The notes: generated by a model not told the origin, from the sequence alone. Shown: positions 32,596 to 51,253, counted from the first letter of the stretch. The stretch: DNA of 64,000 bases from a virus (IMGVR_UViG_3300009108_000480), one strand, 5' to 3'. Made by a program: numbers and translations.

Positions 32596-33393
32596 ATGTT
32601 AAGCATAGAAGAAATAAAACTGTTAAAAGAAAAACTACAAAAACTTAAAGGTACAGATTGGGAAAAGTTTTTAAAAGAACAAATACAAATTTTAACAGAT
32701 GTGGAATTGGCTGTTGATGCTAATAATCAAGACACAATTGATCGATTAGATAAAACATTAGATTGGTTTAGACGAGATTTAAAAATAAAAAGAGAACAAC
32801 CTATGTTTGATCCAATATTAAGGGGAGCTATAACAAGAAAAATATTCCAATTTGCTAAAACTAATATCTATAATAGTCTTGAAATTGGTCCTGGTACAGG
32901 TATGTTTTCTAAAGACTTTAGAGCATGGCGATTAAATTATTTTCTTGAAGTACTGCCTGAACTAGAAGCAAAAATACGAAGAAGATTTCCTCCACCTCAT
33001 CAAAAATATCTTAAATTTTATCTAACACGCAATACTGAATGTTCAAATATTCCACAAGGTTCTTGCAATCTTGTGTTTAGCTGGGATACCTTTGTATTCT
33101 TTACACAACAACACATACAACAATACCTACACGACATTAAAAGAGTATTAATACCAGGTGGTTATTGTTTTATACATTATGCAGATTGCCATTTTGATTA
33201 TGATTTACACGAAGCAAAAAGAGGTTATTGGAACTACAATACCAAAAGTGAAATGGAAAAAATTATTAAAGAAGAAGGTTATGAAATTGTGGAAATGAAA
33301 CAATTTAAACCAGGAGCCAATTATGCCATATTTAAAAAACCTGGTAAACAAAATCCAGCAGTGTATAAAATAAATGAAATTACTATTGATTAA
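32596..33393 (+). CDS. Class I SAM-dependent methyltransferase
   Basis: SLEIGPGTG motif I, LVFSWDTF, RVLIPGG. Confidence 0.85.
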   Translation: MLSIEEIKLLKEKLQKLKGTDWEKFLKEQIQILTDVELAVDANNQDTIDRLDKTLDWFRRDLKIKREQPMFDPILRGAITRKIFQFAKTNIYNSLEIGPGTGMFSKDFRAWRLNYFLEVLPELEAKIRRRFPPPHQKYLKFYLTRNTECSNIPQGSCNLVFSWDTFVFFTQQHIQQYLHDIKRVLIPGGYCFIHYADCHFDYDLHEAKRGYWNYNTKSEMEKIIKEEGYEIVEMKQFKPGANYAIFKKPGKQNPAVYKINEITID

Positions 33394-33420: not shown

Positions 33421-34158
33421 ATGAAAGATATCTTACAAGACATAGTTAAGCACACGCATGGACTAGGATTTTTAGATCTTGTCAAAATTTCCGGAGATGG
33501 TAGTGAAACTGCTATTGATTCAATGGCAGAAGACAGATCAGTTATCTTGCAAGGAACCTTTAACAAACCACAATCAGAAATGACTGGTACGTTTGGTATG
33601 CCTCAATTGAATAAATTAGATATTCACTTGAAGTGTCCTGAATATCAAGAAAAAGCAAAAATAACTGTAACAAAAGGCAACAGAAATAGTGCTGAAGTTC
33701 CAACAGGAATTCATTTTGAAAACGAAAAGGGAGACTTCAAAAACGATTACAGATTTATGAATGCTGAAATTATCAACGAAAAACTTAAAACAGTTAAGTT
33801 TAAGGGAGTTAAATGGGACGTTGAAATTGAACCAACCGTGGCGAGTGTACAAAGGTTTAACTTTCAATCTATTGCAAATACAGAACATAATTCTTTTGTT
33901 GTTAGAACAGAGAACAATAACCTGATATTTTCATTTGGTGATCAAGCATCACATGGTGGAGAATTTGTTTTTGCAAAAGGAGTGAAAGGAACTCTAAATA
34001 AAGGATGGAGTTGGCCTGTAGCACAGGTATTGCAAATACTGAAACTGTCGGATTCAGCAAAAGTTATATTACATTTCTCAAACGAAGGAGCAATGATGGT
34101 AACGGTTGATTCGGGGTTAGGCAAGTATCAATATATAATTCCAGCCCAGGCGCAATAA
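33421..34158 (+). CDS. Probable DNA sliding clamp (gp45-like)
   Basis: 245 aa, alternating beta/alpha pattern in two halves, next to polB; clamp loader present in window. Confidence 0.55.
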   Translation: MKDILQDIVKHTHGLGFLDLVKISGDGSETAIDSMAEDRSVILQGTFNKPQSEMTGTFGMPQLNKLDIHLKCPEYQEKAKITVTKGNRNSAEVPTGIHFENEKGDFKNDYRFMNAEIINEKLKTVKFKGVKWDVEIEPTVASVQRFNFQSIANTEHNSFVVRTENNNLIFSFGDQASHGGEFVFAKGVKGTLNKGWSWPVAQVLQILKLSDSAKVILHFSNEGAMMVTVDSGLGKYQYIIPAQAQ

Positions 34159-35600
34159 TGGCAGAATATCGGCAAGAACATTTAGGCAAATTTAACAGAA
34201 ACTTTGCAGTGTTCTTGCCTGCAATTTCAAATTTTTACAATACATTTATATCCAGACAACGAACTACCAAAGGTAAACACATTCCAAAGGATAGAATTCC
34301 AAAAGGTTTTGATCAAGACGTTGAAGGTTTAAACTTCATTAATCCAGATAAAGGTTATTTTACATATCCAACTGCATTATATTCGGCAGGACACGCCTGT
34401 TTAGATATGGATAAAGTTACAGATAGAGATTCTATGTGTGTAAACAGAGATAGAAAGTTTAGCACAATAGTAGGTGATTCTGGTGGATATCAAATAGCAA
34501 AAGGTGTTATACAATTCGATTGGAAAGATTTCGAAGGAAATAAAGCAAATGCAGTTAGAAACAATATACTAAACTGGTTAGAACTTACATCAGATTGGGC
34601 AATGACATTAGACGTTCCAACTTGGGCGGCAGATGACTTAAACAAAGGAAAATCAGGATTAAACAGTTTTGAGGATTGTTTAAATGCTACAAAATTTAAT
34701 AATGATTACTTCCAAAAAAATAGACTTGGACAAACAAAATTCTTAAACGTACTACAAGGTGATGATTGGGAAACTGGAACAATTTGGTATGATCAAATGA
34801 AAAACTATAAGTTTGAAGGTTGGGCATTTGGTGGTATTAATATGTGTGATATGGAAATATTACTTAAAAGACTAATTGTAATGAGAGACGAAAAGCAATT
34901 AGACGGCAAAGATTGGATTCACATATTAGGCACATCACAATTAGACTGGGCTTGTTTCTTAACACAAATACAAAGACAACTAAAAAAACATATTAATCCA
35001 AATGTTACAATAAGTTTTGATTCAGCATCGGCATTTTTATCAGTTGCAAATGGATTAACATATACTCAAAATGTGTTTACTCCAAAACGATTTTCTTACA
35101 TTATGGATAAAGCACCAGATGACAAAAGATTAAAAGGATCTGATATTCCATTTCCATTTCAAAGTGCAATTGGTGATAGATTAACAATGGGAGATATTTG
35201 TAGGTATGGCGAAGGAGACCTAAATAAGAATAACAAAGAAGGTAAAACTGCTTGGGACAGTTTTAGCTATTGTTTATTAATGGCTCATAGTGTTTATAAT
35301 CATATTAAAGCAGTACAAGTTGCAAATGATTTAAATGATATTGAAAGTGTGGTACATAAACCACAAGTTAAACATTGGAGAAAAACTAAAGGACAAGACA
35401 ATACAGACGAATTTAGCAATTTTGTTCCAAGAAACATCTTATATTTTAATACATTAGTCGAAGAAGTGTTTACTTCTGAGAACCCAATGGAAGTTATTAA
35501 CAATGCTAAAAGTTTTCTAGCAGATATACGAGGTACACGATGGGCAAGACATACAGGGGGAGGAAAAGGTAAAAATAACTTTAGTTCATTATTTGAATAG
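34158..35600 (+). CDS. tRNA-guanine transglycosylase-fold protein, DpdA-like DNA base-exchange enzyme
   Basis: TGT motifs in order: GDSGGYQ, TLDVP, VLQG, AFGG, HILG, SFDS. Confidence 0.82.
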   Translation: MAEYRQEHLGKFNRNFAVFLPAISNFYNTFISRQRTTKGKHIPKDRIPKGFDQDVEGLNFINPDKGYFTYPTALYSAGHACLDMDKVTDRDSMCVNRDRKFSTIVGDSGGYQIAKGVIQFDWKDFEGNKANAVRNNILNWLELTSDWAMTLDVPTWAADDLNKGKSGLNSFEDCLNATKFNNDYFQKNRLGQTKFLNVLQGDDWETGTIWYDQMKNYKFEGWAFGGINMCDMEILLKRLIVMRDEKQLDGKDWIHILGTSQLDWACFLTQIQRQLKKHINPNVTISFDSASAFLSVANGLTYTQNVFTPKRFSYIMDKAPDDKRLKGSDIPFPFQSAIGDRLTMGDICRYGEGDLNKNNKEGKTAWDSFSYCLLMAHSVYNHIKAVQVANDLNDIESVVHKPQVKHWRKTKGQDNTDEFSNFVPRNILYFNTLVEEVFTSENPMEVINNAKSFLADIRGTRWARHTGGGKGKNNFSSLFE

Positions 35601-35855: not shown

Positions 35856-35883
35856 TTGACAAAATAAAAGGATATGCTATAAT
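35856..35883 (+). promoter_or_regulatory. Sigma70 promoter with extended -10
   Basis: TTGACA (35856-35861), TGc-TATAAT (35878-35883); overlaps track ATG, so the real start is probably 35891. Confidence 0.7.
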
Positions 35884-35890
35884 GCAAGTA

Positions 35891-36427
35891 ATGGAAAGAG
35901 ATTACAAAACCGGTGTAAAAAAAGATATTACAGTTTTCTCAGGTGTGGAAATTGAACACACACCAGCATATGGAAAACAAACATTATTTCTTGCTCGTAA
36001 TGATTTAACATTTGATCAAATACAAGAATGTGCTGTTATGGTGAATGCTGAAGCAATTTATTATGGTGCAAATAGAAGCTATATGCACAGCCAATTCATG
36101 CAAGTACCACAAATTATGAAATTTTTAGAACATGGTTATTATGTAACCGTAGATTATCCTTTTGAATTACACCAACTAGTTAGTCAAAAATTTGCATTGG
36201 TTTGGAAACATGAAAAGTTTATTCCATTTTGTTCAATTATAATGCCAGACTCAGAAGAAGATACATCATTATATTTTAAAATTGATGACGTTGATTTTAA
36301 TAAAACAAATCCCGGTGTATGGACAATGAGTATAAAAGACTTTAAAGATAAAGCAGGATTTACTAAATGGGATGATTATAAAAAAGATGAACCAATAGAG
36401 GAGAGTAAAATATGGTCAATGAGATGA
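35891..36427 (+). CDS. Hypothetical protein in the deazaguanine cluster
   Basis: ORF between TGT-like and QueD-like genes. Confidence 0.6.
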   Translation: MERDYKTGVKKDITVFSGVEIEHTPAYGKQTLFLARNDLTFDQIQECAVMVNAEAIYYGANRSYMHSQFMQVPQIMKFLEHGYYVTVDYPFELHQLVSQKFALVWKHEKFIPFCSIIMPDSEEDTSLYFKIDDVDFNKTNPGVWTMSIKDFKDKAGFTKWDDYKKDEPIEESKIWSMR

Positions 36428-36903
36428 AAAGCGAAGAATTAAGTATCAGTCAATTAGATGCAATAAGAGATAATGAATTAAACGAACAAAGAAATCAAGC
36501 ATTAAAGGAACGAGCAGGTAAGGCATCTAAAATGATTTGGGTAACCTTTCGTAAAGAAGGTATGCACAAATACCCAGCGGCATTAGAAGATCCAAAGTTA
36601 AAAACAGGTGATGAATATGACGTATCATTTTTAGGATATCCGCATAGGCATACATTTCATTTTAAAGTTGCAATAGAAGTATTTCATGATGATAGAGATA
36701 TTGAATTTATACAATTCCAAAGATGGATTTTAAGTTTATATAGTCAAGGCACTTTACAAAACGATTTTAAAAGTTGTGAAATGATGTCAGATGATTTATA
36801 CATTCAAATAACAAAAAAATATCCAGGCAGAAAAATTGAAATAGACGTTTCTGAAGATGGAGAAAATGGATCACACGCAGTTTATGAAAGAAATAACATT
36901 TAA
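36412..36903 (+). CDS. QueD-like T-fold protein (DpdL-like)
   Basis: FLGYPHRHTFHF, SCEMM, VSEDGENG T-fold motifs. Confidence 0.75.
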   Translation: MVNEMKSEELSISQLDAIRDNELNEQRNQALKERAGKASKMIWVTFRKEGMHKYPAALEDPKLKTGDEYDVSFLGYPHRHTFHFKVAIEVFHDDRDIEFIQFQRWILSLYSQGTLQNDFKSCEMMSDDLYIQITKKYPGRKIEIDVSEDGENGSHAVYERNNI

Positions 36904-37204
36904 AGAAAAAAGAGCAACAACAAGAATGGGTTATCTACCAATAGGTGGAGGAGGCTTAAATGCATCTTATACATTTGTAGATGCCGTTGCAAATATCTGT
37001 GCCACTGCAGGTAACCTAGGTATGATATATGGCAAAGATTTTATTTGGGCATATCATGGATATGACGCCGATAATGACGATTGTATTACACTAATGGTTA
37101 AAGAAGAAAAGTATGAAACTTTTTTACATTTAGCACTTAAAAATGATCACAAAATTAAGCATACCCAAAATGGTGATGCTATACTAGTTAAGTCATCTAA
37201 ATAA
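36884..37204 (+). CDS. Hypothetical protein
   Basis: Coupled ORF. Confidence 0.55.
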   Translation: MKEITFKEKRATTRMGYLPIGGGGLNASYTFVDAVANICATAGNLGMIYGKDFIWAYHGYDADNDDCITLMVKEEKYETFLHLALKNDHKIKHTQNGDAILVKSSK

Positions 37205-37209
37205 CATGA

Positions 37210-38367
37210 ATGTCACGCAAACTACTAGACAAAAATTTCTGTGTATTACCTTGGACAGGTTTTCAACTAGAACCTAACGGTATAGTAAAAAACTGCATCA
37301 TTGCTGAAGATACTATTGGCAATATACATCAAAATAGCATAGAAAACATTCTTCAATCAAAAAAGAATCTTGAGATTAAAACTCAAATGCTAAACAAAGA
37401 ATTTCCAAGTAATTGTAAAGGTTGCTATTTTCAAGAAGAAAATCGAGCAAAAAGTTTTGAAAGTATTAGTAGTCGACTATATTATGCAAAAGAATTAGGT
37501 CCGCACATTAGCAATAACTTATTAGATGATAAAAATAACTTTGATTTAAGTCATGTAGATCTTAGATGGAACAATAAATGCAATCAAGCCTGTGTTTATT
37601 GTAACTCTGATTACAGTAGTAAATGGGCACAAGAATTAAACATTAAACAAAAATTTGAAAAGAAAAATGTTGAAAAAGTAAAACAATATGTCTTTAAAAA
37701 TATTAAAAAATTAAAAAACATTTATCTTGCTGGAGGTGAACCTTTGCTTATGAACGATAATAAGGAGTTTCTAGAATTATTATTAAAACAAAATCCTGAT
37801 ATCCATTTAAGAGTAAACACAAATTTAAGTTCTACAGGAACAGGAGTGTTTCAATTGTTATGTCAGTTTAAAAATGTTCATTGGACTATAAGCATAGAAT
37901 CCATAGAAGAAGAATATGAATATATTAGATACCATAGTTCCTGGAATACTTTTTTAAAAAATTTACAACACATACAAACACTTAATCATAGAATTAGTTT
38001 TAATATGTTACATTTTATTCTAAACTATAAAAGCATTTTTAATTGCGTTGACTATTTAAAATCGTTAGGCTTTCACAACAATAATTTTATAATTGGACCA
38101 CTGTATGGACCTTTATTTTTGAACATTAAACATTTACCACAAAAAATATTAAATGAAGTTATTAATATTCTTAAAACCAAAATTAACGAAAAACCAGGAT
38201 TTTACCTACAAAATAGTTTGGAAAATATACTGAAGTATTTGACTGAACCCAATTTTTATGCTAATATAGAACTAGTACGTAGTAGAATAAAAAAAATGGA
38301 TGAGAGACGAAATTTAAATAGTAGGAAAATATTTCCAAAATTATATAAGGAAATGTTTAATGAGTAA
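37210..38367 (+). CDS. Radical SAM protein with N-terminal SPASM/twitch-like domain
   Basis: CVLPW, CKGC, CNQACVYC, AGGEP. Confidence 0.88.
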   Translation: MSRKLLDKNFCVLPWTGFQLEPNGIVKNCIIAEDTIGNIHQNSIENILQSKKNLEIKTQMLNKEFPSNCKGCYFQEENRAKSFESISSRLYYAKELGPHISNNLLDDKNNFDLSHVDLRWNNKCNQACVYCNSDYSSKWAQELNIKQKFEKKNVEKVKQYVFKNIKKLKNIYLAGGEPLLMNDNKEFLELLLKQNPDIHLRVNTNLSSTGTGVFQLLCQFKNVHWTISIESIEEEYEYIRYHSSWNTFLKNLQHIQTLNHRISFNMLHFILNYKSIFNCVDYLKSLGFHNNNFIIGPLYGPLFLNIKHLPQKILNEVINILKTKINEKPGFYLQNSLENILKYLTEPNFYANIELVRSRIKKMDERRNLNSRKIFPKLYKEMFNE

Positions 38368-38527
38368 ATGTAATTGTGGAAGATCACCTACAGGACTTTG
38401 TGTTGGTTGGCATTCTTTAACTGAAGAAAAATATAAAGAAAAGAAAAAGAAATATGAAAAAATGGAAGAAGAAAAAAAGAAAAAGAATCCCTTTCATGCA
38501 AGAGCAATTGATGGGTTTGGAGAGTAA
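38360..38527 (+). CDS. 55-aa CDGSH-like iron-sulfur/zinc-finger protein (not in ORF track)
   Basis: My translation: MSKCNCGRSPTGLCVGWHSLTEEKYKEKKKK...; fills gap exactly. Confidence 0.65.
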   Translation: MSKCNCGRSPTGLCVGWHSLTEEKYKEKKKKYEKMEEEKKKKNPFHARAIDGFGE

Positions 38528-39700
38528 ATGAAAATATTTTACATGGGCCTAGAGCCATACGAAGGCAGATATACATTACAATTAACTGATTGGACTGAAC
38601 GGGCTTTCAAAAATAGAGGTATCGATTATGTTATAGTACCTGGTACTACTATCGATGATTCCAAAGCAATTGTAACAGGACAAGTATTAGATGCACATGG
38701 ACGTTCATATTTTGGTATGAGTCAAATGATGAATTTAGTACAAATGATGAAAGCTGGTGAAATTACATCAAATGATATTATATTTTTTGAAGATATGTTT
38801 CAACCAGGTATAGAATCGTTACCATACATTATGAATCAATCACCAGCAGAATTTAGACCAAAAGTTTGGATAAGATGTTTAGCACAATCAATTGATCCTG
38901 ATGATTTTATACACGTATGGGATATGAGCAAATGGATGAGCTTATATGAAGCGATGTGCAATGAATTTGTAACAGGTGTATTAGCAACTAATGAAGAAAT
39001 GGTTGCACATATGAAAATTGCAAATTGGAAAGCACCAATTTATAACATATCAGGATTAAGTTTTGGCAAAGAAGAAGTACAAAATAGAGTAAAAGATATT
39101 AAACCTTTTGAAGAACGAACAATGCGAGTTGTTTTTGGTGCAAGATGGGATCAAGAAAAACAACCAGGTTTCTTTATGGATATGATTGACCATTGGCAAC
39201 AAAATAAAAAATTGCCTCCAGTTGAATTTTGTATCTGCGTAGGTGGACCTTTAAGAAGTAATAACAAAGTATATGTAGACAGGGCAAGACGAATGGAAAA
39301 AGAAGGCACACTTACAATATATGAAAATTTAAAAAAGAATCAATATTACAACATACTTGCAGATTCAAGAGTATTATTTAATTGTGCGTTACAAGATTGG
39401 ACATCCAATACTGTATCAGAAGCAGATTCATTAGGTTGTAATGTACTATTTCCAGCATACAGAACATTTCCTGAAGTTTTTGCAAACGACGAAACAAGAA
39501 TGTATGTTCCGTGGAGTGGCAGAGATGCAATGGAAAAACTAAAAGTATTATTAATGAAACCATCCCCTAGTATGGGTCAAATATCTGATTGGACTGACGG
39601 TACAATAGACAGAATGATTGACATTATGACAGGCACGGGAGAACAATGGAGAAGAGATGGAAAACACTACAGAACACCAGTTTCCGAATCTAAATATTAA
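38528..39700 (+). CDS. GT-B fold glycosyltransferase (GT4-like)
   Basis: ARWDQEKQPGF, SRVLFNCALQDWTSNTVSEA..LGC (E-x7-E-like region). Confidence 0.75.
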   Translation: MKIFYMGLEPYEGRYTLQLTDWTERAFKNRGIDYVIVPGTTIDDSKAIVTGQVLDAHGRSYFGMSQMMNLVQMMKAGEITSNDIIFFEDMFQPGIESLPYIMNQSPAEFRPKVWIRCLAQSIDPDDFIHVWDMSKWMSLYEAMCNEFVTGVLATNEEMVAHMKIANWKAPIYNISGLSFGKEEVQNRVKDIKPFEERTMRVVFGARWDQEKQPGFFMDMIDHWQQNKKLPPVEFCICVGGPLRSNNKVYVDRARRMEKEGTLTIYENLKKNQYYNILADSRVLFNCALQDWTSNTVSEADSLGCNVLFPAYRTFPEVFANDETRMYVPWSGRDAMEKLKVLLMKPSPSMGQISDWTDGTIDRMIDIMTGTGEQWRRDGKHYRTPVSESKY

Positions 39701-40691
39701 ACCAATTGGATCCTGTGTATTAGTAACAGGAGGAGCTGGATATATTGGCTCACACACCTGTAAAATATTAAAGAAAAATGGATTCACTCCAATAACTATT
39801 GATAGACATATTGAAAGGTTTGGTCATGCAACATTTGGCCCACATTTTCAAGTTGACCTACCTAAAAATCAAAGTTATCTAAACGAAATAATTAAAAGAT
39901 ACGATATACAATCTTGCATACACTTTGCTGGTAGTGCCTCAGTTGGTGAATCTGTAAAAGATCCAAGCAAGTATTATAAAAATAATGTAATAACTACAAT
40001 GGCTCTGCTTGATCAATTAGTACAAAATAATATTAAAACATTTATATTTTCATCAAGTGCGGCTGTATATGGCGATCCCGGAAATCGAAAATGTAGAGAA
40101 GATCGCGGACCAAATCCAATTAACCCATATGGTGTTACAAAATTAATAGTAGAAAGAATGCTTATGGATTATAAAACAGCATATGGCATTTCATCGGTAA
40201 GTTTAAGATATTTTAATGCCGCAGGTGCTGATCCAGAGGAAGAAATTGGAGAATCAAGAACCAAAGAAACTCATTTAATTCCATTGGCCATTAACGCATC
40301 AAGACAATTAAAAACATTTTATATAAATGGCGATAAATTTCCTACAGAAGATGGAACGTGTGTAAGAGATTATGTTCATGTTATGGACCTAGCCGACGCA
40401 CACATTAAGGCTTTAAATTATGCAAATAAAAATTCAGTATGTGAACAAATTAATTTAGGATCAGGTATACCTATTTCTAACAAACAATTATTAGACATCA
40501 TACAAAAACATACCGGTAAAATGGACATAATTGTAAGAGATGGTAGACAAGGAGATCCGGCATATCTTGTAGCTGATATTTTCAAAGCTAAAAAAATATT
40601 AAATTGGTCTCCTACACAAAGTTCTATTGACAATATAGTGGCAACTGCTGTAAAATGGTATAATAAAATACATAAAAAAGAAATACAATAA
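39657..40691 (+). CDS. galE: UDP-glucose 4-epimerase
   Basis: VLVTGGAGYIGSH, SSSAAVYG, YGVTK, LRYFNAAGA, GTCVRDYVHV. Confidence 0.92.
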   Translation: MENTTEHQFPNLNIKPIGSCVLVTGGAGYIGSHTCKILKKNGFTPITIDRHIERFGHATFGPHFQVDLPKNQSYLNEIIKRYDIQSCIHFAGSASVGESVKDPSKYYKNNVITTMALLDQLVQNNIKTFIFSSSAAVYGDPGNRKCREDRGPNPINPYGVTKLIVERMLMDYKTAYGISSVSLRYFNAAGADPEEEIGESRTKETHLIPLAINASRQLKTFYINGDKFPTEDGTCVRDYVHVMDLADAHIKALNYANKNSVCEQINLGSGIPISNKQLLDIIQKHTGKMDIIVRDGRQGDPAYLVADIFKAKKILNWSPTQSSIDNIVATAVKWYNKIHKKEIQ

Positions 40692-41404
40692 TGGATGATA
40701 CATTAAAAGATAGTTGGGATAATACACATGATCCAATTAGCAAACAAATAAAACAAAGAATTAAAAAAGCAGGAAAAAGATTTCACTGTAATGATAATAT
40801 TTCTGAATACATTGAAGATGGTGATTTAGAACAATTACAAGCAGAAGTACAAGAAAAATTACAAGGTGTATTAGAAAGTCTTGTAATTGATACAGAAAAC
40901 GATCACAATACACAGGAAACTGCAAAACGTGTCGCTAAAATGTATGTACAAGAAACATTTGGTGGCAGATATAAACCGTTTCCGAGAGTTACAAGTTTTC
41001 CTAATGTGGGTTACAAGAGTATGTACACTAGTGGTCCAATTAGTATTAAGTCAACGTGTGCTCACCATTTACAAAATATTGTAGGTAATGCTTGGGTAGG
41101 TATTATTCCAACTGGCAAAGTTATTGGTTTGAGTAAGTTTAACAGAATTATACATCACATTGTAGAAAGACCACAGATACAAGAAGAAATGACAACACAA
41201 ATTGCTGATGCATTAAAAGAATACGCACACACAACTCATATTGCAGTAGTAGTTAAAGCAGAACATCATTGTATGACACACAGAGGCGTAAGAGAACAGG
41301 AATCTGATATGACAACTGCAATTATGTTAGGTGCATTTAAAGATGACCCAGCAACTAGAGATGAATTTTATAAAATTTGCATGAGCATGAAGGGCCATGC
41401 ATAA
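40691..41404 (+). CDS. folE: GTP cyclohydrolase I
   Basis: TAKRVAKMY, STCAHH, GLSKFNR, PQIQEEMT, AEHHCM..RGV. Confidence 0.95.
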   Translation: MDDTLKDSWDNTHDPISKQIKQRIKKAGKRFHCNDNISEYIEDGDLEQLQAEVQEKLQGVLESLVIDTENDHNTQETAKRVAKMYVQETFGGRYKPFPRVTSFPNVGYKSMYTSGPISIKSTCAHHLQNIVGNAWVGIIPTGKVIGLSKFNRIIHHIVERPQIQEEMTTQIADALKEYAHTTHIAVVVKAEHHCMTHRGVREQESDMTTAIMLGAFKDDPATRDEFYKICMSMKGHA

Positions 41405-42063
41405 TGAATAATGAACTTCGAAAGAGGTCATTTATAGAGTTAGACGTAGAAATCGATTTCGAAAAACTTTTACAAGAGTATCATATCATAGACAAGAAGT
41501 ATGCTTTCCACAATTACAATACAAATTACTGGGCAGTAAGAAAAAAATATGCTAAAAGTTGGTCTGGTGTATGCCTGACAAGTTCTGATGGAAGTCTATA
41601 CACTGATCTACATGAAAATAGACGAGATATTCCTTTTATAGATACAGAAATAAAAAAACATTGTCCATACATTTACAAATTAATAAAAGATCTAGGCGGC
41701 GACAAATGTAGTGCAAGAATCATGAGGATTTCCCCAAAAGAATCTTTAGTATGGCATAGCCACGTGCAAGAGCACGGACAAGAAGAGAATCAACTTACAG
41801 TGCAAATACCTATAATAGTACCAAAACAATTTGAATATTGTGTGGTTAACAAGAACGAATTTAAATGGTACAAAAGATTTTTTAGACCTTCATGGTTTAA
41901 AAATGCCGAATGCAAAAGACTTGAGACGGGTAAAGCATATATTTTCAATTCCTATCATTACCATAATGTATATAATCATAGCAACGAATATAGAATAACG
42001 TTAATGTTATATCTTGACTTACGAAACCCAACAGTTTATAATTTGGTACAAAGAAGTTTATGA
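41404..42063 (+). CDS. Asp/Asn beta-hydroxylase-like 2OG-Fe(II) oxygenase
   Basis: ARIMRISP...WHSH, GKAYIFN...HNVYN.S.EYRITL. Confidence 0.7.
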   Translation: MNNELRKRSFIELDVEIDFEKLLQEYHIIDKKYAFHNYNTNYWAVRKKYAKSWSGVCLTSSDGSLYTDLHENRRDIPFIDTEIKKHCPYIYKLIKDLGGDKCSARIMRISPKESLVWHSHVQEHGQEENQLTVQIPIIVPKQFEYCVVNKNEFKWYKRFFRPSWFKNAECKRLETGKAYIFNSYHYHNVYNHSNEYRITLMLYLDLRNPTVYNLVQRSL

Positions 42064-42266
42064 AAAAAGGAAAAAAATTAACATTTAAGAAAAAAGTATG
42101 GAAAATTTTAGATGGAACTTATAAAAGACCTATAGATCAAGAAGACGTTGATAGACTAGTAGCGGCAGTACAACAAGAAATAATGTTAGATACTAGAGAT
42201 GTGGAAACGATGGACGCAATTAATGATGGTAAAATAGACTGGAGCGGAAATGCCACCAAAAAGTAA
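42060..42266 (+). CDS. Hypothetical protein
   Basis: Coupled ORF. Confidence 0.5.
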   Translation: MKKGKKLTFKKKVWKILDGTYKRPIDQEDVDRLVAAVQQEIMLDTRDVETMDAINDGKIDWSGNATKK

Positions 42267-42603
42267 AAAAGAATTATTAAAAGATTTAAAAAATGTACAA
42301 GAAAATACTAAAGTAATGGATCAATACGATCAAGCACAAGATTTAGATGGAGGTATGAGTAGTTGGACTTATAATATGGGAGAATTAAACACAGGTACAA
42401 CTGTAACCACGGCAAGCGTAGGTTCATTAGATGATGGACTTGATGTAAAATTTGACGTAAGTGATGGTTTATATCAACCAAGTTTTGACTTTGATGATGA
42501 AAAATTAAGAAAAAAATATCCAGCATTACAAGATGCTCATGAACATTACCAAAATATAAAACAAATGTGCGAAACTAGAGAACGAGAAGAAGATGGAAAT
42601 TAA
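42250..42603 (+). CDS. Hypothetical protein
   Basis: Coupled ORF. Confidence 0.55.
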   Translation: MPPKSKKELLKDLKNVQENTKVMDQYDQAQDLDGGMSSWTYNMGELNTGTTVTTASVGSLDDGLDVKFDVSDGLYQPSFDFDDEKLRKKYPALQDAHEHYQNIKQMCETREREEDGN

Positions 42604-42850
42604 AGATTTATTAGAAGATGTTAAAGCATATCGTAATACAATGGTTGCTAGAAATTTCCCACATCAAGAAATTACAAACCTTATTATAAAATGGGATCAA
42701 AAACTTCTAGAAGATACACCCGAATACAAACAACGTAAAGAAAGAGAAGCAAAGGAAAAACAGTTAGAAGAATTTAAAAAAAGAGAACAAGAAGAACAAG
42801 AAAATTTAGAAAAAATAGCCAAAGAAGCAAGAGAGGAAGATGCGTCTTAA
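42593..42850 (+). CDS. Hypothetical charged coiled-coil protein
   Basis: Coupled ORF. Confidence 0.5.
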   Translation: MEIKDLLEDVKAYRNTMVARNFPHQEITNLIIKWDQKLLEDTPEYKQRKEREAKEKQLEEFKKREQEEQENLEKIAKEAREEDAS

Positions 42851-43889
42851 TACTGAACTTAAATTAAATTATGCAGATGTTTTGTTACAACCAAAACGTT
42901 CAACATTATCTTCTCGAAAAGATGTTGACATAGAAAGAACATTTACATTTCAAAATTCAAAAGAAACTTATACGTGTGTTCCTATTGTAGCATCTAATAT
43001 GGATGGCGTTGGTACATTTAGTATGGCTAAAGTATTACAGGAATATAAAATGATGACTGTAATAACAAAAACAACAACACCTGAGCAATGGAAACAAGCC
43101 GTAGGACAAGGAATAAAATTAAAATACATATCTGTATGTACAGGTACAGGAAAACTTTGGGATAAAGACGCAGAAGATTATGCCACAATGCAACAAATAT
43201 TAAAAAGTTATCCAGATGTTAAATTTATTACAATTGACGTTGCAAATGGGTATCATGAAAATTATGTAGACTTTGTCGAAAAAGTAAGAGAAGAGTTTCC
43301 TGACAAAACTATAATTGCAGGTAACGTTGTTACTGCAGAAATGGTTGAGCAATTAATTATTAGTGGTGCTGATGTAGTAAAAATTGGTATAGGACCAGGA
43401 TCAGTATGTACAACAAGAACAATGGCTGGTGTAGGTGTTCCACAATTTTCAGCGGTAGTAGAATGTGCTGATGCGGCCAACGGTGTTGGAGGACACATAA
43501 TGGCTGATGGTGGTTGTGTAGAACCAGGTGATGTAGCAAAAGCATTTGGTGGCGGTGCACATTTTGTTATGCTAGGTGGTATGTTAGCAGGACACAATGA
43601 ATCAGAGTTGCCAGTTGTAGATGGAGAAAGAGAATTTTATGGTATGAGTTCTGATAGAGCAAGAGAAATACACGGTAAAAGAAAAGATGGATATAGAGGT
43701 AACGAAGGACGAAGAGTATTTTTACCTGACAGAGGACCTGTATCAGAAACAATTGAAGATATGTTAGGTGGAGTAAGATCCGCTTGTACATATATTGGTG
43801 CAAGAAGATTAAAGGATATACCTAAATGTGCAAGTTTTGTTAGAACAAACAATCCAATTAATAAAGTTTACGACCAATACGAAGATTAA
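42840..43889 (+). CDS. guaC: GMP reductase
   Basis: DVLLQPKRS, ASNMDGVG, IDVANG, GIGPGSVCTTR, MADGG, FYGMSS; lacks CBS domains; GuaC-type SACTYIGA. Confidence 0.93.
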   Translation: MRLNTELKLNYADVLLQPKRSTLSSRKDVDIERTFTFQNSKETYTCVPIVASNMDGVGTFSMAKVLQEYKMMTVITKTTTPEQWKQAVGQGIKLKYISVCTGTGKLWDKDAEDYATMQQILKSYPDVKFITIDVANGYHENYVDFVEKVREEFPDKTIIAGNVVTAEMVEQLIISGADVVKIGIGPGSVCTTRTMAGVGVPQFSAVVECADAANGVGGHIMADGGCVEPGDVAKAFGGGAHFVMLGGMLAGHNESELPVVDGEREFYGMSSDRAREIHGKRKDGYRGNEGRRVFLPDRGPVSETIEDMLGGVRSACTYIGARRLKDIPKCASFVRTNNPINKVYDQYED

Positions 43890-43902: not shown

Positions 43903-45054
43903 ATGATACCGAACAAAAATACATTCTGCGTTGCACCTTTTAATAGTCTTTATGTAGGTCCAACTGGCAGTATTACCCCTTGTTGTCTTTTCGACAAACC
44001 AACAAAATATAAATTTCACGAAACTGAAGACTATTATCATTCTAAAGATCTGAATAAAGTAAGAAATAATTTAATTAACGGTATTAAAGATACCAACTGT
44101 ATTGCGTGTTGGAAACAAGAAGAAGCTAATGGTGATTCATTAAGATTAATATTAAACAGAACTGTTGGAAAAGATATTACTCAAGCAATTAATAATTTAG
44201 ATACAAAAAATATAAAAAGTTTTGACTTACAGCTTGGAAATTTATGTAATTTAAAATGCGTTATGTGTTCACCAAAGTGGAGTAGTCAAATACTTGCTGA
44301 GATAAACATAAATCAAGAAATGAAAAAATTTTATAAACATGGCAATTTGAAACAAAACGAATTTAATTGGCCAAAAGAAAACGATTTTGCAAAATGGTGT
44401 GAAAAATTTTTACCACAAAGTATACATATCAAATTAACTGGGGGCGAACCCTTCATAAATCCGTGGCTGTTCAAAACATTAGAAAACATACCAACAAGTC
44501 AAAAAGAAAAATGTATTCTTCACTTTACTACAAACCTAACAATAATTAATGACAAAATATTAAACATACTTAAAAAATTTAAAGAAACATGGATTAGTGT
44601 ATCTGTTGATGGCATAGAAGATACTTTTGAATATATTAGATTTGGCCATACTTGGAATGCTATTAAAAAAAATATAGACACATTATTAAATGTTAAAGAA
44701 AACATAAAATTATCAATTAACTGTGTAATACAAGCACCAATACTACCTAATATTGTTAATATGGTAAATTATTTTGATACTAAAAAAATAAAAATAAGAC
44801 CTATTATACTAACATCACCAAAAAAACTAACACTTTCTTCTTTAAAAGAACAATTTAAAAATAATATTATAAAAGATCTACAAAATTATAAAGGATATAA
44901 TCAAGAATTTATTGACGTTGTTAAATCAGTAATTAAAGATAATATAAATCACGACAATGAATTAGCTCAAGAATGTGTGCATTACCTAGATAATATTGAC
45001 AAAATACGAAACACTAATTTTAAAAACATTATTCCGGTTGATTGTTTTATATGA
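43903..45054 (+). CDS. Radical SAM protein with N-terminal SPASM/twitch-like domain
   Basis: CVAPF...PCC, CIAC, CNLKCVMC, TGGEP. Confidence 0.88.
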   Translation: MIPNKNTFCVAPFNSLYVGPTGSITPCCLFDKPTKYKFHETEDYYHSKDLNKVRNNLINGIKDTNCIACWKQEEANGDSLRLILNRTVGKDITQAINNLDTKNIKSFDLQLGNLCNLKCVMCSPKWSSQILAEININQEMKKFYKHGNLKQNEFNWPKENDFAKWCEKFLPQSIHIKLTGGEPFINPWLFKTLENIPTSQKEKCILHFTTNLTIINDKILNILKKFKETWISVSVDGIEDTFEYIRFGHTWNAIKKNIDTLLNVKENIKLSINCVIQAPILPNIVNMVNYFDTKKIKIRPIILTSPKKLTLSSLKEQFKNNIIKDLQNYKGYNQEFIDVVKSVIKDNINHDNELAQECVHYLDNIDKIRNTNFKNIIPVDCFI

Positions 45055-45743
45055 GAGACATAGGCATTTATTATAAAAGTTCTACTTGCGGTATGTTCCT
45101 ATTATATTATATTTTAGGATCAGATCAAAAATTTAATGTGACTTCACGTAATCAAGATCTTAACTATGGTACTAATAAAAAATTAATGACCTCGATGTTC
45201 TATACACAATTTAAACCTAAAAAATATGGCGAGTGGATTAGTGGTGAATATTGGCCAGATAATTTGTTTGCTGACAACCATTTACCAAAATTTTATTACT
45301 TTCAAATACACGATTTTGCTCCACACCAAGATTTTAAAGAAAAATTTCGAATAAATGACTTATATAAAAAACTCGACTGCATAAAAATTAATCCTTATGT
45401 TGCTGATGATAGCAAATGGTTTAAACTAATGTTCTATAAAAGATCTGGATCATTTCATGATTTCCCAAAACAAAATTTTACTTTTAAAGAATTTTACCAA
45501 CGATTTAAATTTGTATTATCAAGAAGTAAAGGCTCCAAATTAGATTGGTGTGATTATAGCTTTGATATCTTAAAATTTTTAGTGGATAAAGAAGAAAGAC
45601 AACGTTTATGTGATTATATAGGTATTACAATGAACGAAAGGATGGAGGAATTTTTAAATTATTATATAAAGGCTCATGAAGAATGGCTACTTAAAAAATT
45701 ATATAGTGATGATGTAAAACGACCAACTGGAGTAATAAAATAA
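45051..45743 (+). CDS. Hypothetical protein, paralog A of tandem pair
   Basis: MRDIGIYYKSSTCGMF... near-identical ends to next gene. Confidence 0.65.
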   Translation: MRDIGIYYKSSTCGMFLLYYILGSDQKFNVTSRNQDLNYGTNKKLMTSMFYTQFKPKKYGEWISGEYWPDNLFADNHLPKFYYFQIHDFAPHQDFKEKFRINDLYKKLDCIKINPYVADDSKWFKLMFYKRSGSFHDFPKQNFTFKEFYQRFKFVLSRSKGSKLDWCDYSFDILKFLVDKEERQRLCDYIGITMNERMEEFLNYYIKAHEEWLLKKLYSDDVKRPTGVIK

Positions 45744-46564
45744 TGAAAGATATAGGCATTTATTATAAAAGTACTTGTTGTGGTATGTTTGTATTGTATT
45801 ACATATTAGGTTCAGACCAAAAATTTAACGTAACTGCACGTAATAAAGAACTTGACTACGGTACTAATAAAAAATTAATGAACTATATGTTCTACAAACA
45901 ATTTCAAAAAACGCAAAAAACCAAAGGCATAACTGGTTGGACTAATGATGCCGAAAGGAAAGACCACAAAAATCGAGTTGGGAATTGGAAAGATGGAAAA
46001 TGGTGGAGCAATTGGACTAGTAAAGAATACTGGCCAGATAACACATTTAAAGACAATGATTTACCAAAACTTTGGTATTTTCAACTTCACGATAACGTAG
46101 AAAAACAAAGTGTTGAGTATTGGGATTACAGACAGAAAACAGAAGAAGAAATAAAAATAATTAGGGATTATAAAAATATTGATTGTATTAAACTTAATCC
46201 TTATGTTACGGATAAAAGAAAATGGTATAAAATGCAATATGCTAAAAGAACCGGAAGTTGTGGGAATATTCCAAAAAAAAATCCTACTTTTAAAAAAGTG
46301 CGTGATACTTATATAGATGGTTGGATTAAAGGTAATGGTGGAGCAACATGGCCATCTAAGTTAGATTGGTGTGATTATAACTTTGACATTCTTAAATTTT
46401 TAGTAGATAAAGAAGAAAGACAGCGTCTATGCGATTACCTTGGCATTACAATAAACGAAAGAATGGAAGAATTTTTAGTACATTATCTAGAATGCCACCC
46501 CGAAAAATTACTTAAAAAATTATACGGATCTGAAGTAGAAAGACCTATTGGTAAAACCATTTAA
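45743..46564 (+). CDS. Hypothetical protein, paralog B of tandem pair
   Basis: MKDIGIYYKSTCCGMF... Confidence 0.65.
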   Translation: MKDIGIYYKSTCCGMFVLYYILGSDQKFNVTARNKELDYGTNKKLMNYMFYKQFQKTQKTKGITGWTNDAERKDHKNRVGNWKDGKWWSNWTSKEYWPDNTFKDNDLPKLWYFQLHDNVEKQSVEYWDYRQKTEEEIKIIRDYKNIDCIKLNPYVTDKRKWYKMQYAKRTGSCGNIPKKNPTFKKVRDTYIDGWIKGNGGATWPSKLDWCDYNFDILKFLVDKEERQRLCDYLGITINERMEEFLVHYLECHPEKLLKKLYGSEVERPIGKTI

Positions 46565-46581
46565 TTAAACTTAAAAGTGTA

Positions 46582-46610
46582 TTGATTTAATTCACAAATT
46601 GTCGTACAAT
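46582..46610 (+). promoter_or_regulatory. Sigma70-type promoter of yhhQ-like gene
   Basis: TTGATT (46582-46587), 17 nt, TACAAT (46605-46610); AGGAGG RBS before 46643. Confidence 0.7.
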
Positions 46611-46642
46611 AGTGAACATTTAATAATATCCTAGGAGGATTA

Positions 46643-47305
46643 ATGTTAGATTTATTAAAAAACGTAGACAAAAGTATGCTGTGGAAACTTGTAGCACTTC
46701 ACGTTATCGTGATTACAGTTTCAAACGGTTTAGTAAACATTCCTGTAGAAATACTTGGAGTTAAACTAACCTGGGCGGCATTCACTTTCCCTTTAGTAGT
46801 AATAGCAACTGACTTAACAGTCAGACTATTGGGTAAAACGATAGCACGGTCTACAATTGCAATAGCCTATCCACTTGCGATCATTGGATCCATTTTGGTA
46901 GTGCTGGCAGAAGGAGCACCTCAATCAGTTGCGTTAAGAATTGGTTTTGCAAGTGCGACTGCGTATGCAATTGGAACTTTGCTAGATGTATATGTCTTCC
47001 AATGGCTGAGAGAAAATTATTCAGCTTGGTGGTTAGCACCTGCAGTATCAACTGTGGTAGCAAACATAATTGACACATACACATTCTTCTTTACAGCATT
47101 CTCAGGTGGCGCCAACGAGTATATGGCGGCTAACTGGGCAGAAATTGCCGGTTCACAAACTGTATTAAAAATTATGGTTGGTTTGATAGTATTCTTACCA
47201 GCTTATGGTTTATTACTTAGACATTTGTCGGGTAAATTTAAAGTTAGTGCAACTGTACAAAAAGCATTTAAAGATGCAAGTAAAGACCTAGTAAAATCAA
47301 AATAA
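46643..47305 (+). CDS. yhhQ: YhhQ/VUT-family queuosine precursor (preQ0/preQ1) transporter
   Basis: SN.LV.IP, TWAAFTFP...TDLTVR, RI..AS..AY..G.LLD, ST..ANIIDT. Confidence 0.9.
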   Translation: MLDLLKNVDKSMLWKLVALHVIVITVSNGLVNIPVEILGVKLTWAAFTFPLVVIATDLTVRLLGKTIARSTIAIAYPLAIIGSILVVLAEGAPQSVALRIGFASATAYAIGTLLDVYVFQWLRENYSAWWLAPAVSTVVANIIDTYTFFFTAFSGGANEYMAANWAEIAGSQTVLKIMVGLIVFLPAYGLLLRHLSGKFKVSATVQKAFKDASKDLVKSK

Positions 47306-47318
47306 AATTGATTTATTT

Positions 47319-47360
47319 TCAATAGGGGGTATTTTTTTACCCCCTGTTGATATTTCATTT
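47319..47360 (+). terminator. Probable intrinsic terminator after yhhQ-like gene
   Basis: 13-bp stem TCAATAGGGGGTA / TACCCCCTGTTGA (one G-U), T6 loop, T-rich tail. Confidence 0.7.
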
Positions 47361-47370
47361 AAATATTGGT

Positions 47371-48333
47371 ATGAATTTCTTAATACTAACTCCTGACGGC
47401 GTCGGTTCTACCATTTTACAAAGACTTTTAACAATGACATTTTCGTTAGAGAACGTTAATGCCGTTAATACCCACGAATTAACTAACAGAATACTATTAG
47501 AAGATAATATTGCTGTACATGATAAAAGATTTATAGGTTCACGATGGAAACAAATGTATGCACAATCGTTGCCCGAAATAGAAAGTATTATAAGACAATC
47601 TTCAAAAGATACAAATATTATAAGCAGAGTTGCCAAATATCATTTAGATAATAGATCAGAACATTTAGGAGAATCTAAAGAACTTGTTACTAATTTTTAT
47701 AAATTTTTAAATGAAGTATACGATAAAAAAATAATGTGCGTAAGAAATAATATTTTTGAATACGCATTGAGTTGGAGTATACGAGAGGAATCTGGAATAT
47801 TAAATGTATATAATAGAGATGACAAACAAAAAGTATTTAAAGTTAAATCGGTTAAAGAAGATTTTTTCGAAAAAAAATGTCAACAATACCTTAATTATAC
47901 GTACTGGGTAAAAGATAACTTTCCTGATGTTATTGAAATTGCTTATGAGGATGTAATTACTAATTCCGACAAAATATTAGAACAACTAACTGGATTTAAA
48001 AATACATATAAAAATAACTTTAAACTAGAATTATCGAGAATTTTAAAAATTGAATACGAAACATTTAACGCTCTCATGACTAGCAAAAAACTAACCAAAT
48101 ATACCAATAAAGAATTAGGTGCGTTAGTACAATATAAAAGATATACAAAAAAACTAGTAGACGAAAACAAAATAATGAACCAACCAATTAAAAACACTAC
48201 ACTATACGATAAGCGAAGACAAATTAAAAATTTTAATAACTGTCTAAGAAAATTCGAGTCTTTTGCTAAAAATCATAACTGGATTGATACTTCTAATGCA
48301 ACATATGATTTTTGGCATGATAAAAAATTATAA
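47371..48333 (+). CDS. Sulfotransferase-like P-loop protein
   Basis: LILTPDGVGSTILQRLL, CVRNNIFEYALSW, IAYED; start moved to ATG 47371 behind TAAATA (47360-47365). Confidence 0.55.
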   Translation: MNFLILTPDGVGSTILQRLLTMTFSLENVNAVNTHELTNRILLEDNIAVHDKRFIGSRWKQMYAQSLPEIESIIRQSSKDTNIISRVAKYHLDNRSEHLGESKELVTNFYKFLNEVYDKKIMCVRNNIFEYALSWSIREESGILNVYNRDDKQKVFKVKSVKEDFFEKKCQQYLNYTYWVKDNFPDVIEIAYEDVITNSDKILEQLTGFKNTYKNNFKLELSRILKIEYETFNALMTSKKLTKYTNKELGALVQYKRYTKKLVDENKIMNQPIKNTTLYDKRRQIKNFNNCLRKFESFAKNHNWIDTSNATYDFWHDKKL

Positions 48334-50365: not shown

Positions 50366-51253
50366 ATGGAGAAAATTAGGTACTCTGAAATATTTAGAAG
50401 CATACAAGGTGAGGGTCGTTTTGCAGGCGTACCAAGTGTATTTTTTAGAACATTTGGTTGTAATTTTCACTGTCATGGATTTGGACAAGGCAGAGATAAA
50501 AGCAAATGGCTTAAACCAGAAGAAATGCCATATGCTACAATGGATCTTACAAATATTAAACACGTTAAAGACTTACCAGTAGTAGACATTGGTTGTGATG
50601 CTAGTGCCAGTTGGGCGGCAAGATACAAACATCTTGTAGATTGGGATCCGGTTGATGTTATTGCTAAAAAAATATTAAGTCATACACCAGAAGGCAAGTG
50701 GATTTCTTCTACCGGACAAGACATACATCTTGTTATAACAGGTGGCGAACCCTTAATGTGGCAAAGACAATTAGAAGCATTAATAAGACAACCTGAATTT
50801 CGTTTCATAAAAAATATTACATTTGAAACTAATTGTACACAACCATGGAAAGATAATTTTGACAAATTTATGCACGGTTTAACTGCTGGTGATTATACAA
50901 AACATCCAGTTCACGTAACTTGGTCTACATCACCTAAACTATCTATATCAGGAGAGCATTGGGCAAAAGCAATACGTCCTGAAGTTGCTTACCAATATTC
51001 ACAAATACCAAACACACATTTATACTTTAAATTTGTGGTAATGGATGAACAAGATATAGAAGAAGTTGATTTAGCAAGAAAGGCTTTTTCTGACAAAGGA
51101 ATAGAAGCTGACATATATCTTATGCCACTAGGAGCAACGTTAGAAGGACAGGCAAAAACTGGTAGACAAGTAGCGGAAATTTGTTTAAAATATGGATATA
51201 AGTTTTCGCCAAGATTACACGTAGATTTGTTTGGTAATAAATGGGGAACTTAA
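50366..51253 (+). CDS. queE: 7-carboxy-7-deazaguanine synthase (radical SAM)
   Basis: YSEIFRSIQGEG...GVPSVFFR..GCN, VITGGEP, FETN, SPKL, KFVV, IYLMP, SPRLH. Confidence 0.92.
   Translation: MEKIRYSEIFRSIQGEGRFAGVPSVFFRTFGCNFHCHGFGQGRDKSKWLKPEEMPYATMDLTNIKHVKDLPVVDIGCDASASWAARYKHLVDWDPVDVIAKKILSHTPEGKWISSTGQDIHLVITGGEPLMWQRQLEALIRQPEFRFIKNITFETNCTQPWKDNFDKFMHGLTAGDYTKHPVHVTWSTSPKLSISGEHWAKAIRPEVAYQYSQIPNTHLYFKFVVMDEQDIEEVDLARKAFSDKGIEADIYLMPLGATLEGQAKTGRQVAEICLKYGYKFSPRLHVDLFGNKWGT

Follow-up and report, generated by a model that had tools for sequence, protein, structure and literature searches.

The eight 7-deazaguanine bases known from DNA are all small. In the Cellulophaga phage phiST, the product of a system composed of FolE, QueD, QueE, DpdL and DpdA3 was measured as 2′-deoxy-7-deazaguanine (dDG), which accounts for 100% of G (PMC10516641). 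The paper that defines the DpdL family proposes that this protein is a 7-carboxy-7-deazaguanine (CDG) decarboxylase, and reports that DpdL and DpdA from phage ACP17 alone are inactive in E. coli (Cui, Hutinet et al., Nucleic Acids Research 2023, PMC10516641). DNA glycosylation as described in the literature that we searched is confined to pyrimidines. Here we examine a 64-kb stretch of DNA, called the window throughout, from the virus IMGVR_UViG_3300009108_000480, an uncultured marine phage. The window encodes a GT-B/GT4-like glycosyltransferase (GT) of 390 residues (38528..39700, plus strand) within a DNA-modification module of the DpdL type. On balance, we lean towards the reading that this enzyme adds a sugar derived from a UDP-sugar to deazaguanine.

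The window has a GC content of about 31% and is coded almost entirely on the plus strand; in appearance, it is a large phage genome. Jumbo phages have the B-family polymerases nearest to that of the window, with identities of 50% for Phosso and 42–44% for Atu_ph07 and 121Q-like phages. The original prediction, made from the nucleotide sequence, had placed eight genes between positions 36412 and 42063; all eight were found there, tightly packed on the plus strand. The core of the module extends beyond these limits and comprises, likewise on the plus strand, a DpdA-like transglycosylase with the fold of tRNA-guanine transglycosylases (TGT; 480 residues, "W480" type, 34158..35600), a DpdL-type T-fold protein of 163 residues (36412..36903; phrog_17812), the GT, the UDP-glucose 4-epimerase GalE (39657..40691; TIGR01179, 334.5 bits against an equivalog cutoff of 262.3), the GTP cyclohydrolase I FolE, which catalyzes the first step of deazaguanine synthesis (40691..41404; PF01227, E 1e-47; phrog_2197), and a QueE-like radical S-adenosylmethionine (SAM) enzyme of the CDG synthase type (50366..51253). 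The last assignment is based on homology to phage QueE: the protein is 39% identical to the annotated QueE of phage BUCT-ZZ01 and 31% identical to that of BUDD, and its N-terminal matches to QueE models score under the cutoffs of those models. The partners described for DpdL, here FolE, the QueE-like enzyme and the TGT-fold protein, are all present in the window, and no QueC-type match was found among the window proteins scanned. A QueD hidden Markov model (HMM) built from 37 phage sequences found no match in the 64-kb window, which implies that this activity is supplied by the host or from elsewhere in the phage genome.

The gene at 36412 had been described as QueD-like. The protein is a putative T-fold protein of the QueD-like kind, but it is not QueD proper: residues 74–82 read LGYPHRHTF, and this LxxxHRHxF motif, which replaces the CxxxHGH of QueD, identifies the protein as DpdL. 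The catalytic cysteine of QueD and of 6-pyruvoyltetrahydropterin synthase (PTPS) is missing. Window DpdL is 55% identical to its homolog in ACP17 and 53% identical to that in BUDD, and the DpdL-family HMM matches phiST gp040 with an E value of 6e-21.

The adjacent 480-residue protein is the predicted catalyst of guanine-to-deazaguanine exchange in DNA. By sequence or profile, it found no match in Pfam (including the TGT family PF01702), NCBIfam or the PDB. Its AlphaFold2 model has a mean predicted local distance difference test (pLDDT) of 88.8, and every one of the best 50 Foldseek matches to this model is a tRNA-guanine transglycosylase (E 2e-8 to 1e-7, probability 1.00). The TM-scores to TGT structures are only 0.42–0.56, and we therefore regard the protein as a distant member of the superfamily. 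Across 26 sequences, the motif D107-S-G-G-x-Q112 and the residue D288 (FDxxS) are invariant. These motifs align to HADSGGLQ and YDS in the TGT-like family of ACP17, BUDD and BUCT-ZZ01 (the ACP17 type), and hhalign relates the two families with 95% probability and an E value of 1.7e-8. EST35_0316 of the Pseudomonas jumbo phage PA5oct is 40.6% identical to the window protein.

The C-terminus of this transglycosylase may point to a connection with the replication machinery. The window polymerase ends in TFNKLFEI (32560–32587) and the TGT-like protein ends in NFSSLFE (35570–35600), the latter on a disordered tail with pLDDT below 50 from residue 460 onwards. Immediately ahead of the TGT-like gene, with an overlap of one base, is the putative clamp gene. 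Several relatives terminate in NLFDFE, ELFD or TLFA, and others have acidic C-termini. These features suggest that the sliding clamp serves as a tether for base exchange. A similar tether was considered for the GT and found no support, as the window GT ends without a clamp-type tail and an LF[DE]-like tail occurs in only 2 of the 83 members of the GT family alignment that also served as our family profile.

That the gene at 38528 encodes a glycosyltransferase, as originally proposed, is supported by structure prediction, by fold comparison and by the profile of its family. The AlphaFold2 model (pLDDT 94.4, predicted TM-score 0.92) shows a GT-B fold of two Rossmann-like domains with a cleft between them, and Foldseek retrieves PimA, BshA, MshA and glycogen synthase with E values of about 1e-12. 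VIA-align superimposes the model on GT4 enzymes with Z scores of 22.5–27 over approximately 300–350 residues; the best scores are 27.0 to 6kih, 26.1 to BshA (3mbo) and 25.9 to MshA (3c4q), over 321–340 residues. The 83-member profile matches GT4 structures, including WlaC (6eji, E 5e-4), and individual members match Glycos_transf_1 PF00534 (52/83) or PF13692 (36/83). Within the family, three positions do not vary (R206, E210 and K211), and two hardly do (D290 and E298, a D-x7-E form of the E-x7-E type motif). The block around R206–K211 aligns to WlaC by profile. By analogy with GT4 enzymes, we read these five positions as putative donor-binding residues.

The family is large. When sequences are clustered at 90% identity, 7,975 of the 8,000 candidates scored reach an E value of 0.001 or better, many of them from marine surveys; at 50% the family forms 829 clusters. 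Among the viral folds of BFVD, the window GT finds its own family first (E 4e-23 and 3e-18), far above generic GT1-family proteins, and entries named "DNA alpha-GT" follow only at ranks 40 and 48 (E 3e-8 to 5e-8). Kinship with the queuosine glycosyltransferase QTMAN was also considered and not found: none of the 83 family members matches the Pfam model QTMAN_N, which we take to be PF12038, at E 0.01. GTDC1 is not among the best 30 Swiss-Prot fold matches of the GT, although the two may be distantly related. A complex prediction for GT and DpdL returned a score of 0.00, which is no verdict, and was not used in either direction.

The evidence that ties this glycosyltransferase to deazaguanine is its genomic company. 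We collected 80 IMG/VR loci, each with a GT relative of 61–70% identity to the window protein. DpdL is located near the GT in 76 of these loci, with a median gap of about 15 nt across the sample, and three of the four loci that lack DpdL end at a contig edge. GalE is encoded within 10 kb of the GT in 68 loci and directly adjoins it in 55, and FolE, QueD and QueE were found in 61, 60 and 51 loci, respectively. Two architectures occur. The first runs polB, clamp, W480-type TGT, (W181), DpdL, GT, GalE, FolE, (QueD), QueE, where W181 is a small conserved protein. The second runs QueE, FolE, exonuclease, second GT, ACP17-type TGT, DpdL, GT, GalE, QueD. The two TGT types exclude each other and take up one and the same position, just upstream of DpdL.

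This linkage persists far from the window sequence. In a second sample, comprising five family members with 28–38% identity on differing phage backbones, DpdL adjoins the GT in every case, including siphovirus-like contigs with RecT and ParB. The same adjacency exists in the six cultured lineages that carry a GT, namely BUCT-ZZ01, ACP17, BUDD/X1, Phosso, the PA5oct group and the Burkholderia phage BCSR5. When a profile from a 12-sequence alignment was used to search 185,579 bacterial and archaeal species, each represented by a single genome, the GT was found on only eight contigs of metagenome-assembled genomes (MAGs), in the same phage context wherever the flanks were long enough. In the sampled data, the GT family is restricted to phages. 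The original prediction had named, as evidence against itself, homologs that are common in phages lacking the TGT-like and que genes. Such homologs were not seen; this objection fails because, save for the four loci mentioned above, every sampled family member sits in a deazaguanine module beside DpdL.

Gene linkage of this kind could also arise if the acceptor of the GT were a small molecule from the pathway and stayed outside DNA, with the GT either making a pterin glycoside, as in cyanobacterial biopterin glucoside, or a free glycosylated deazapurine, as in huimycin. The phage DNA would then contain plain dDG or its carboxylated counterpart dCDG (2′-deoxy-7-carboxy-7-deazaguanine). FolE, a PTPS-like T-fold protein and a GT4 enzyme are what the gene logic of a pteridine glycoside would look like, and the tetrahydrobiopterin glucosyltransferases 5zes and 9v0l match our GT model with Z scores of 24.1–24.5. 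These BGluT matches are tied, however, with those of dozens of other GT4 enzymes (Z 22.5–27). The acidic acceptor domain of the GT and the precedent of the huimycin enzyme, which acts on a free base, also suit this explanation. It is nevertheless difficult to reconcile with the TGT-fold enzyme of DNA or RNA base exchange and the QueE that accompany the GT in nearly all sampled loci, with a DpdL that is devoid of the QueD/PTPS catalytic cysteine, or with the lack of any sepiapterin reductase among the genes seen. Moreover, the family is confined to phages, and a lytic phage has an obvious use for a DNA product and none for a free metabolite. We consider this explanation unlikely.

Comparison with DpdL systems that lack a glycosyltransferase adds a second line of evidence, which concerns the kind of system that the GT belongs to. 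The phiST group, RHph_I1_18, Ahp1, Bakedbeans, D479 and MA9V-3 encode DpdL without a GT within 10–12 kb on either side, and all six of these lineages contain the small phiST-type DpdA3. An HMM of six such DpdA3 proteins found no match in the window or in any GT-bearing locus. The GT-bearing loci instead encode the larger ACP17-type or W480-type TGT-fold proteins, or, in BCSR5, a weakly TGT-like one. By jackhmmer, the TGT-like family of ACP17, BUDD and BUCT-ZZ01 is distinct from phiST-type DpdA3. Since the presence of the GT tracks the type of transglycosylase, the GT marks a system other than plain dDG production instead of being an optional ornament.

Additional sugar-related genes recur in the GT-bearing modules of unrelated lineages. 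A second, distantly related glycosyltransferase (Z447, about 450 residues, weak Glycos_transf_1 matches) is found in 39 of the 80 loci, for example at L001:9004-10347; in one of the two architectures, it immediately precedes the ACP17-type TGT gene. Its presence hints at a disaccharide or at two sugars. In BCSR5, a PIG-L/LmbE-like deacetylase (L093:13927-14634; E 4.7e-5, under the Pfam cutoff) is encoded between DpdL and GT, a combination that recalls the GT4–deacetylase pairs MshA/MshB and BshA/BshB. In PA5oct, a 172-residue epimerase/dehydratase-like protein (EST35_0320, L087:10642-11160) is encoded beside DpdL.

The association between GT and transglycosylase type could alternatively mean that the GT is an accessory or structural partner of the large TGT-fold enzymes, which binds them or DpdL, or acts on the enzyme itself, with dDG as the base, as in phiST. 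The inactivity of ACP17 DpdL and DpdA as a pair in E. coli would agree with a missing partner of this sort. A purely structural protein would have little reason to keep its putative donor-binding residues, and these are conserved down to 28% identity to the window GT; likewise, the recurring GalE, second GT, deacetylase-like and epimerase-like genes make sense only if nucleotide sugars are consumed. An accessory role is accordingly quite unlikely. Very unlikely, finally, is a GT that targets an unrelated acceptor (5-hydroxymethylcytosine, 5-hydroxycytosine (5hoC), a protein of the virion or of the host, or a glycan on the host surface) and is found near que genes merely as a replication-module or early gene, for although this phage encodes many other sugar-tailoring genes and seven radical SAM paralogs, and although the known phage DNA glycosyltransferases act on pyrimidines, the adjacency to DpdL is kept in T4-like, jumbo and siphovirus-like (RecT, ParB) backbones and at 28% identity, homologs of the T4-type DNA alpha-GT rank 40th or lower among viral folds, no thymidylate-synthase-like hydroxylase was seen beside the GT in any sampled locus, and thyA2 does occur in the corresponding region of MA9V-3, a phage that has no GT.

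We therefore return to a sugar on deazaguanine as the preferred reading, for which the following sequence of steps can be proposed. FolE, a QueD activity and the QueE-like enzyme would produce CDG, which DpdL, following the literature proposal, would convert to 7-deazaguanine. The 480-residue TGT-fold protein would exchange guanine in phage DNA for the deazapurine, and the GT would attach a sugar to it, leading to glycosylated 7-deazaguanine in virion DNA. The part of GalE would be to provide a UDP-hexose or UDP-N-acetylhexosamine (UDP-HexNAc) as its 4-epimer; a preference for UDP-Glc/Gal or UDP-GlcNAc/GalNAc is not distinguishable from its sequence. From the observed folds, families and gene linkage of these parts we infer that the acceptor is the deazapurine. 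By analogy, transfer may occur on DNA, where the T4 glucosyltransferases act, or on the free base ahead of its insertion, in the manner of HuiG of huimycin biosynthesis; the acidic acceptor domain and the C-terminus without a clamp-type tail lean weakly towards the free base. A bulkier substrate and a different complex would each be consistent with the larger TGT-fold enzymes of GT-bearing systems. Possible points of attachment are the 2-amino group, the carboxylate of CDG, provided that DpdL does something other than decarboxylation or something in addition to it, and C7 or C8 by formation of a C-glycoside.

Several considerations weigh against this scheme. All of it, including the sugar on DNA, the identity of this sugar and its attachment site, is argued from gene neighborhood. 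The proposed product of DpdL, 7-deazaguanine, has no hydroxyl group, so that O-glycosylation would need another acceptor. Retaining GT4 enzymes are not known to make C-glycosides. No hydroxylase is conserved in the core module, either among the 80 loci or in L099, a close relative of the window. The window GT by itself finds no match in Pfam (E 0.01), PHROGs or NCBIfam, and it lacks the clamp-type C-terminal tail in which both the polymerase and the TGT-like protein end. Members of the GT family are acidic, with a median isoelectric point of 5.7, and the N-domain of the window GT has a value of 4.9. Neither feature favors DNA binding; the TGT-like families of these loci are acidic too, and acidity is therefore uninformative on this point. 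Finally, the function of DpdL is itself only predicted (PMC10516641).

The question of which genes might prepare the base for glycosylation can be addressed by comparing the window with L099, a contig binned as a Rickettsiales MAG with most of the shared proteins 75–85% identical to their window counterparts. L099 encodes polB, clamp, the TGT-like protein, W181, DpdL, a 115-residue open reading frame (ORF), GT, GalE, FolE, GMP reductase, HGPRT, a cupin protein and QueE. In this background, the window shows three insertions (37210–38527, 41404–42840 and 43903–49836, corresponding to L099:7445-8001, 10886-11192 and 12229-13270), and L099 has HGPRT where the window has inserted content. Together, the insertions contain two N-terminal-twitch radical SAM enzymes, a Cys-rich mini-ORF, a cupin oxygenase, a YhhQ transporter, a GDSL-like protein and proteins without assignment, and the third insertion includes a pair of paralogs with 52% identity (45042–45743 and 45743–46564). 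Consequently, L099 is missing the first radical SAM gene and the 55-residue Cys-rich ORF that follows it, the oxygenase, and the whole block at 43903–49836 with YhhQ and the second radical SAM gene.

The original prediction had assigned the task of introducing a handle for the sugar to the oxygenase or to the radical SAM enzyme. This part of the proposal was not sustained: the oxygenase occurs in none of the 80 loci and the radical SAM gene in one, and both are missing from L099. The conserved core must thus work without them. The 55-residue ORF was also absent from all 80 loci. At most, the inserted radical SAM enzymes, Cys-rich ORF and oxygenase may tailor the product further in the window phage. 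In its full form, our proposal is that the virion DNA of this phage and of many other DpdL–GT phages carries 7-deazaguanine modified with a hexose (or with HexNAc or hexosamine), made by a phage-only GT4 family together with a class of large TGT-fold enzymes, and tailored further in this phage by the inserted radical SAM enzymes and oxygenase. We put this composite forward tentatively, as a conjecture with slightly less than even prospects.

Several inserted genes on the plus strand deserve a short description. The first N-terminal-twitch radical SAM enzyme (37210..38367) matches NF033640 with 264 bits (cutoff 170) as well as the Pfam models Radical_SAM and SPASM; searches of cultured phages for homologs returned only remote matches. 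The second (43903..45054) matches NF033640 with 293 bits. The 55-residue Cys-rich ORF (38360..38527), CNCGRSPTGLCVGWH, contains the pattern CxCx2Sx4CxGxH. It had been called CDGSH-like, and a likeness can be seen by eye, but neither Pfam nor any other family collection searched gave a match. It is possibly a small metal or Fe-S protein that was inserted along with the radical SAM gene. The oxygenase, which starts at 41377 or 41404 and ends at 42063, resembles Asp/Asn beta-hydroxylases of the cupin fold (Asp_Arg_Hydrox, PF05118, 40.4 bits against a cutoff of 22.6), and found no match in 50,697 phage records. The transporter (46643..47305; PF02592, E 9e-25) belongs to the YhhQ/Vut_1 family of queuosine precursor importers.

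Translational coupling of the GT, galE, folE and oxygenase genes had also been proposed, and the overlaps and junctions on which this idea was based are real. GT and GalE overlap by 44 nt, with no later GalE ATG ahead of the Rossmann motif; GalE and FolE have one base in common; and the stop codon of FolE forms TAATG with an in-frame ATG of the oxygenase at 41404. Upstream, the radical SAM gene overlaps the 55-residue ORF by 8 nt, and this ORF abuts the GT gene.

Three further small or accessory genes are located in or near the module. W181 (35882..36427, plus strand), a conserved protein of 181 residues encoded between the TGT-like gene and DpdL, has no assigned family: no match was found in Pfam, PHROGs, NCBIfam, the PDB (by profile) or the protein Atlas. 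It is present in 16 of the 80 loci and in ACP17 (ASD50402, 30% identity), the only match of a W181 HMM among cultured phages. The 115-residue ORF (36857..37204, plus strand), also without a family match, is 69% conserved in L099. A class I SAM methyltransferase at 32596–33393, between the polymerase and the putative clamp gene, has counterparts in only 3 of the 80 related loci.

Genes of purine metabolism accompany the module as well. GMP reductase (42840..43889, plus strand; NF003470, 475 bits against a cutoff of 397) adjoins the GT in 6 of the 80 loci and is also present in L099, and the purine phosphoribosyltransferase HGPRT lies inside the module at L001:7087-7548 and in 5 of the 80 loci. 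GMP reductase, and HGPRT in the relatives, could remove guanine displaced from DNA and so drive replacement to completion. Among the distant relatives, proteins of the uracil-DNA glycosylase family are encoded near the DpdL–GT pair in two siphovirus-like contigs (L084:7093-7587 and L086:9381-10607). The neighbors of another distant DpdL–GT pair (L097:1111-4620) are a RES-domain gene, a resolvase gene and, on the opposite strand, a W480-type TGT-like gene; this locus may belong to a plasmid or other mobile element instead of a phage.

The original prediction knew of no described glycosylated 7-deazaguanine in DNA, and none was found in the literature that we searched; a 2024 review of deazaguanines in Microbiology and Molecular Biology Reviews might mention one. 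Nor is this GT described in the literature searched on DpdA together with glycosyltransferases, or on DpdL, DpdA3, ACP17 and PA5oct. If our reading is true, the product would be, to our knowledge, the first glycosylated purine in any DNA. Such a base would form a class of its own among natural DNA bases and would bear on the evasion of restriction and CRISPR, on type IV and END-type defences, and on the sequencing of environmental phage DNA. Given the abundance of the GT family, such a modification, if real, would be ecologically widespread. A missing GT may explain why ACP17 DpdL and DpdA failed in E. coli. The idea is directly testable, because the core is found in six cultured lineages, among them that of PA5oct, a therapy candidate.

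Known glycosylated bases offer partial precedents. The alpha- and beta-glucosyltransferases of T4 and the arabinosyl-5hoC system of RB69 resemble the window in that a phage GT-B enzyme is combined with phage sugar-nucleotide enzymes, and in that base decoration counteracts restriction. The T-even glycosyltransferases, however, use pyrimidine hydroxyls that are provided by thymidylate-synthase homologs, whereas the partner genes in the window make a deazapurine and include no conserved step that would introduce a hydroxyl. HuiG and QTMAN/GTDC1 are GT1/GT4-type enzymes that attach sugars to a 7-deazaguanine derivative, as we propose for the window GT. QTMAN acts on queuosine in animal tRNA and needs the cyclopentenediol of this nucleoside, and the window GT family has no match to QTMAN_N. 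The sugar of huimycin reportedly sits on the 2-amino group. In the biosynthesis of this compound, HuiG (Pfam PF13439) uses UDP-GlcNAc to glycosylate a methylated derivative of preQ0 (bioRxiv 10.64898/2026.04.15.718813). In contrast to the window GT, HuiG operates on a free base, within a bacterial secondary-metabolite cluster that contains no transglycosylase.

Among deazaguanine systems, that of phiST is like the window in having FolE, a QueE-type enzyme, a DpdL with the LxxxHRHxF motif and a TGT-superfamily enzyme beside it, in having no QueC, and in its placement by replication genes. It differs in that it contains no GT and no annotated GalE in the region, and in that its DpdA3 (gp042, CGPG_00065) is a small protein of 259 residues instead of the 480-residue TGT-fold protein of the window. 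The module of PA5oct (EST35_0316 to EST35_0322) is different again in having a short epimerase-like protein in place of GalE and the order TGT-like, GT, DpdL. The virion DNA of this phage resists restriction enzymes with G in their sites, and the report of this resistance does not name the responsible base (PMC12191111). In its composition, PA5oct has the same core as the window, with a W480-type TGT of 40.6% identity, a GT recognized by the family HMM with an E value of 9e-39 and a DpdL of 55% identity, followed, as in the window, by QueE and adjoining polB.

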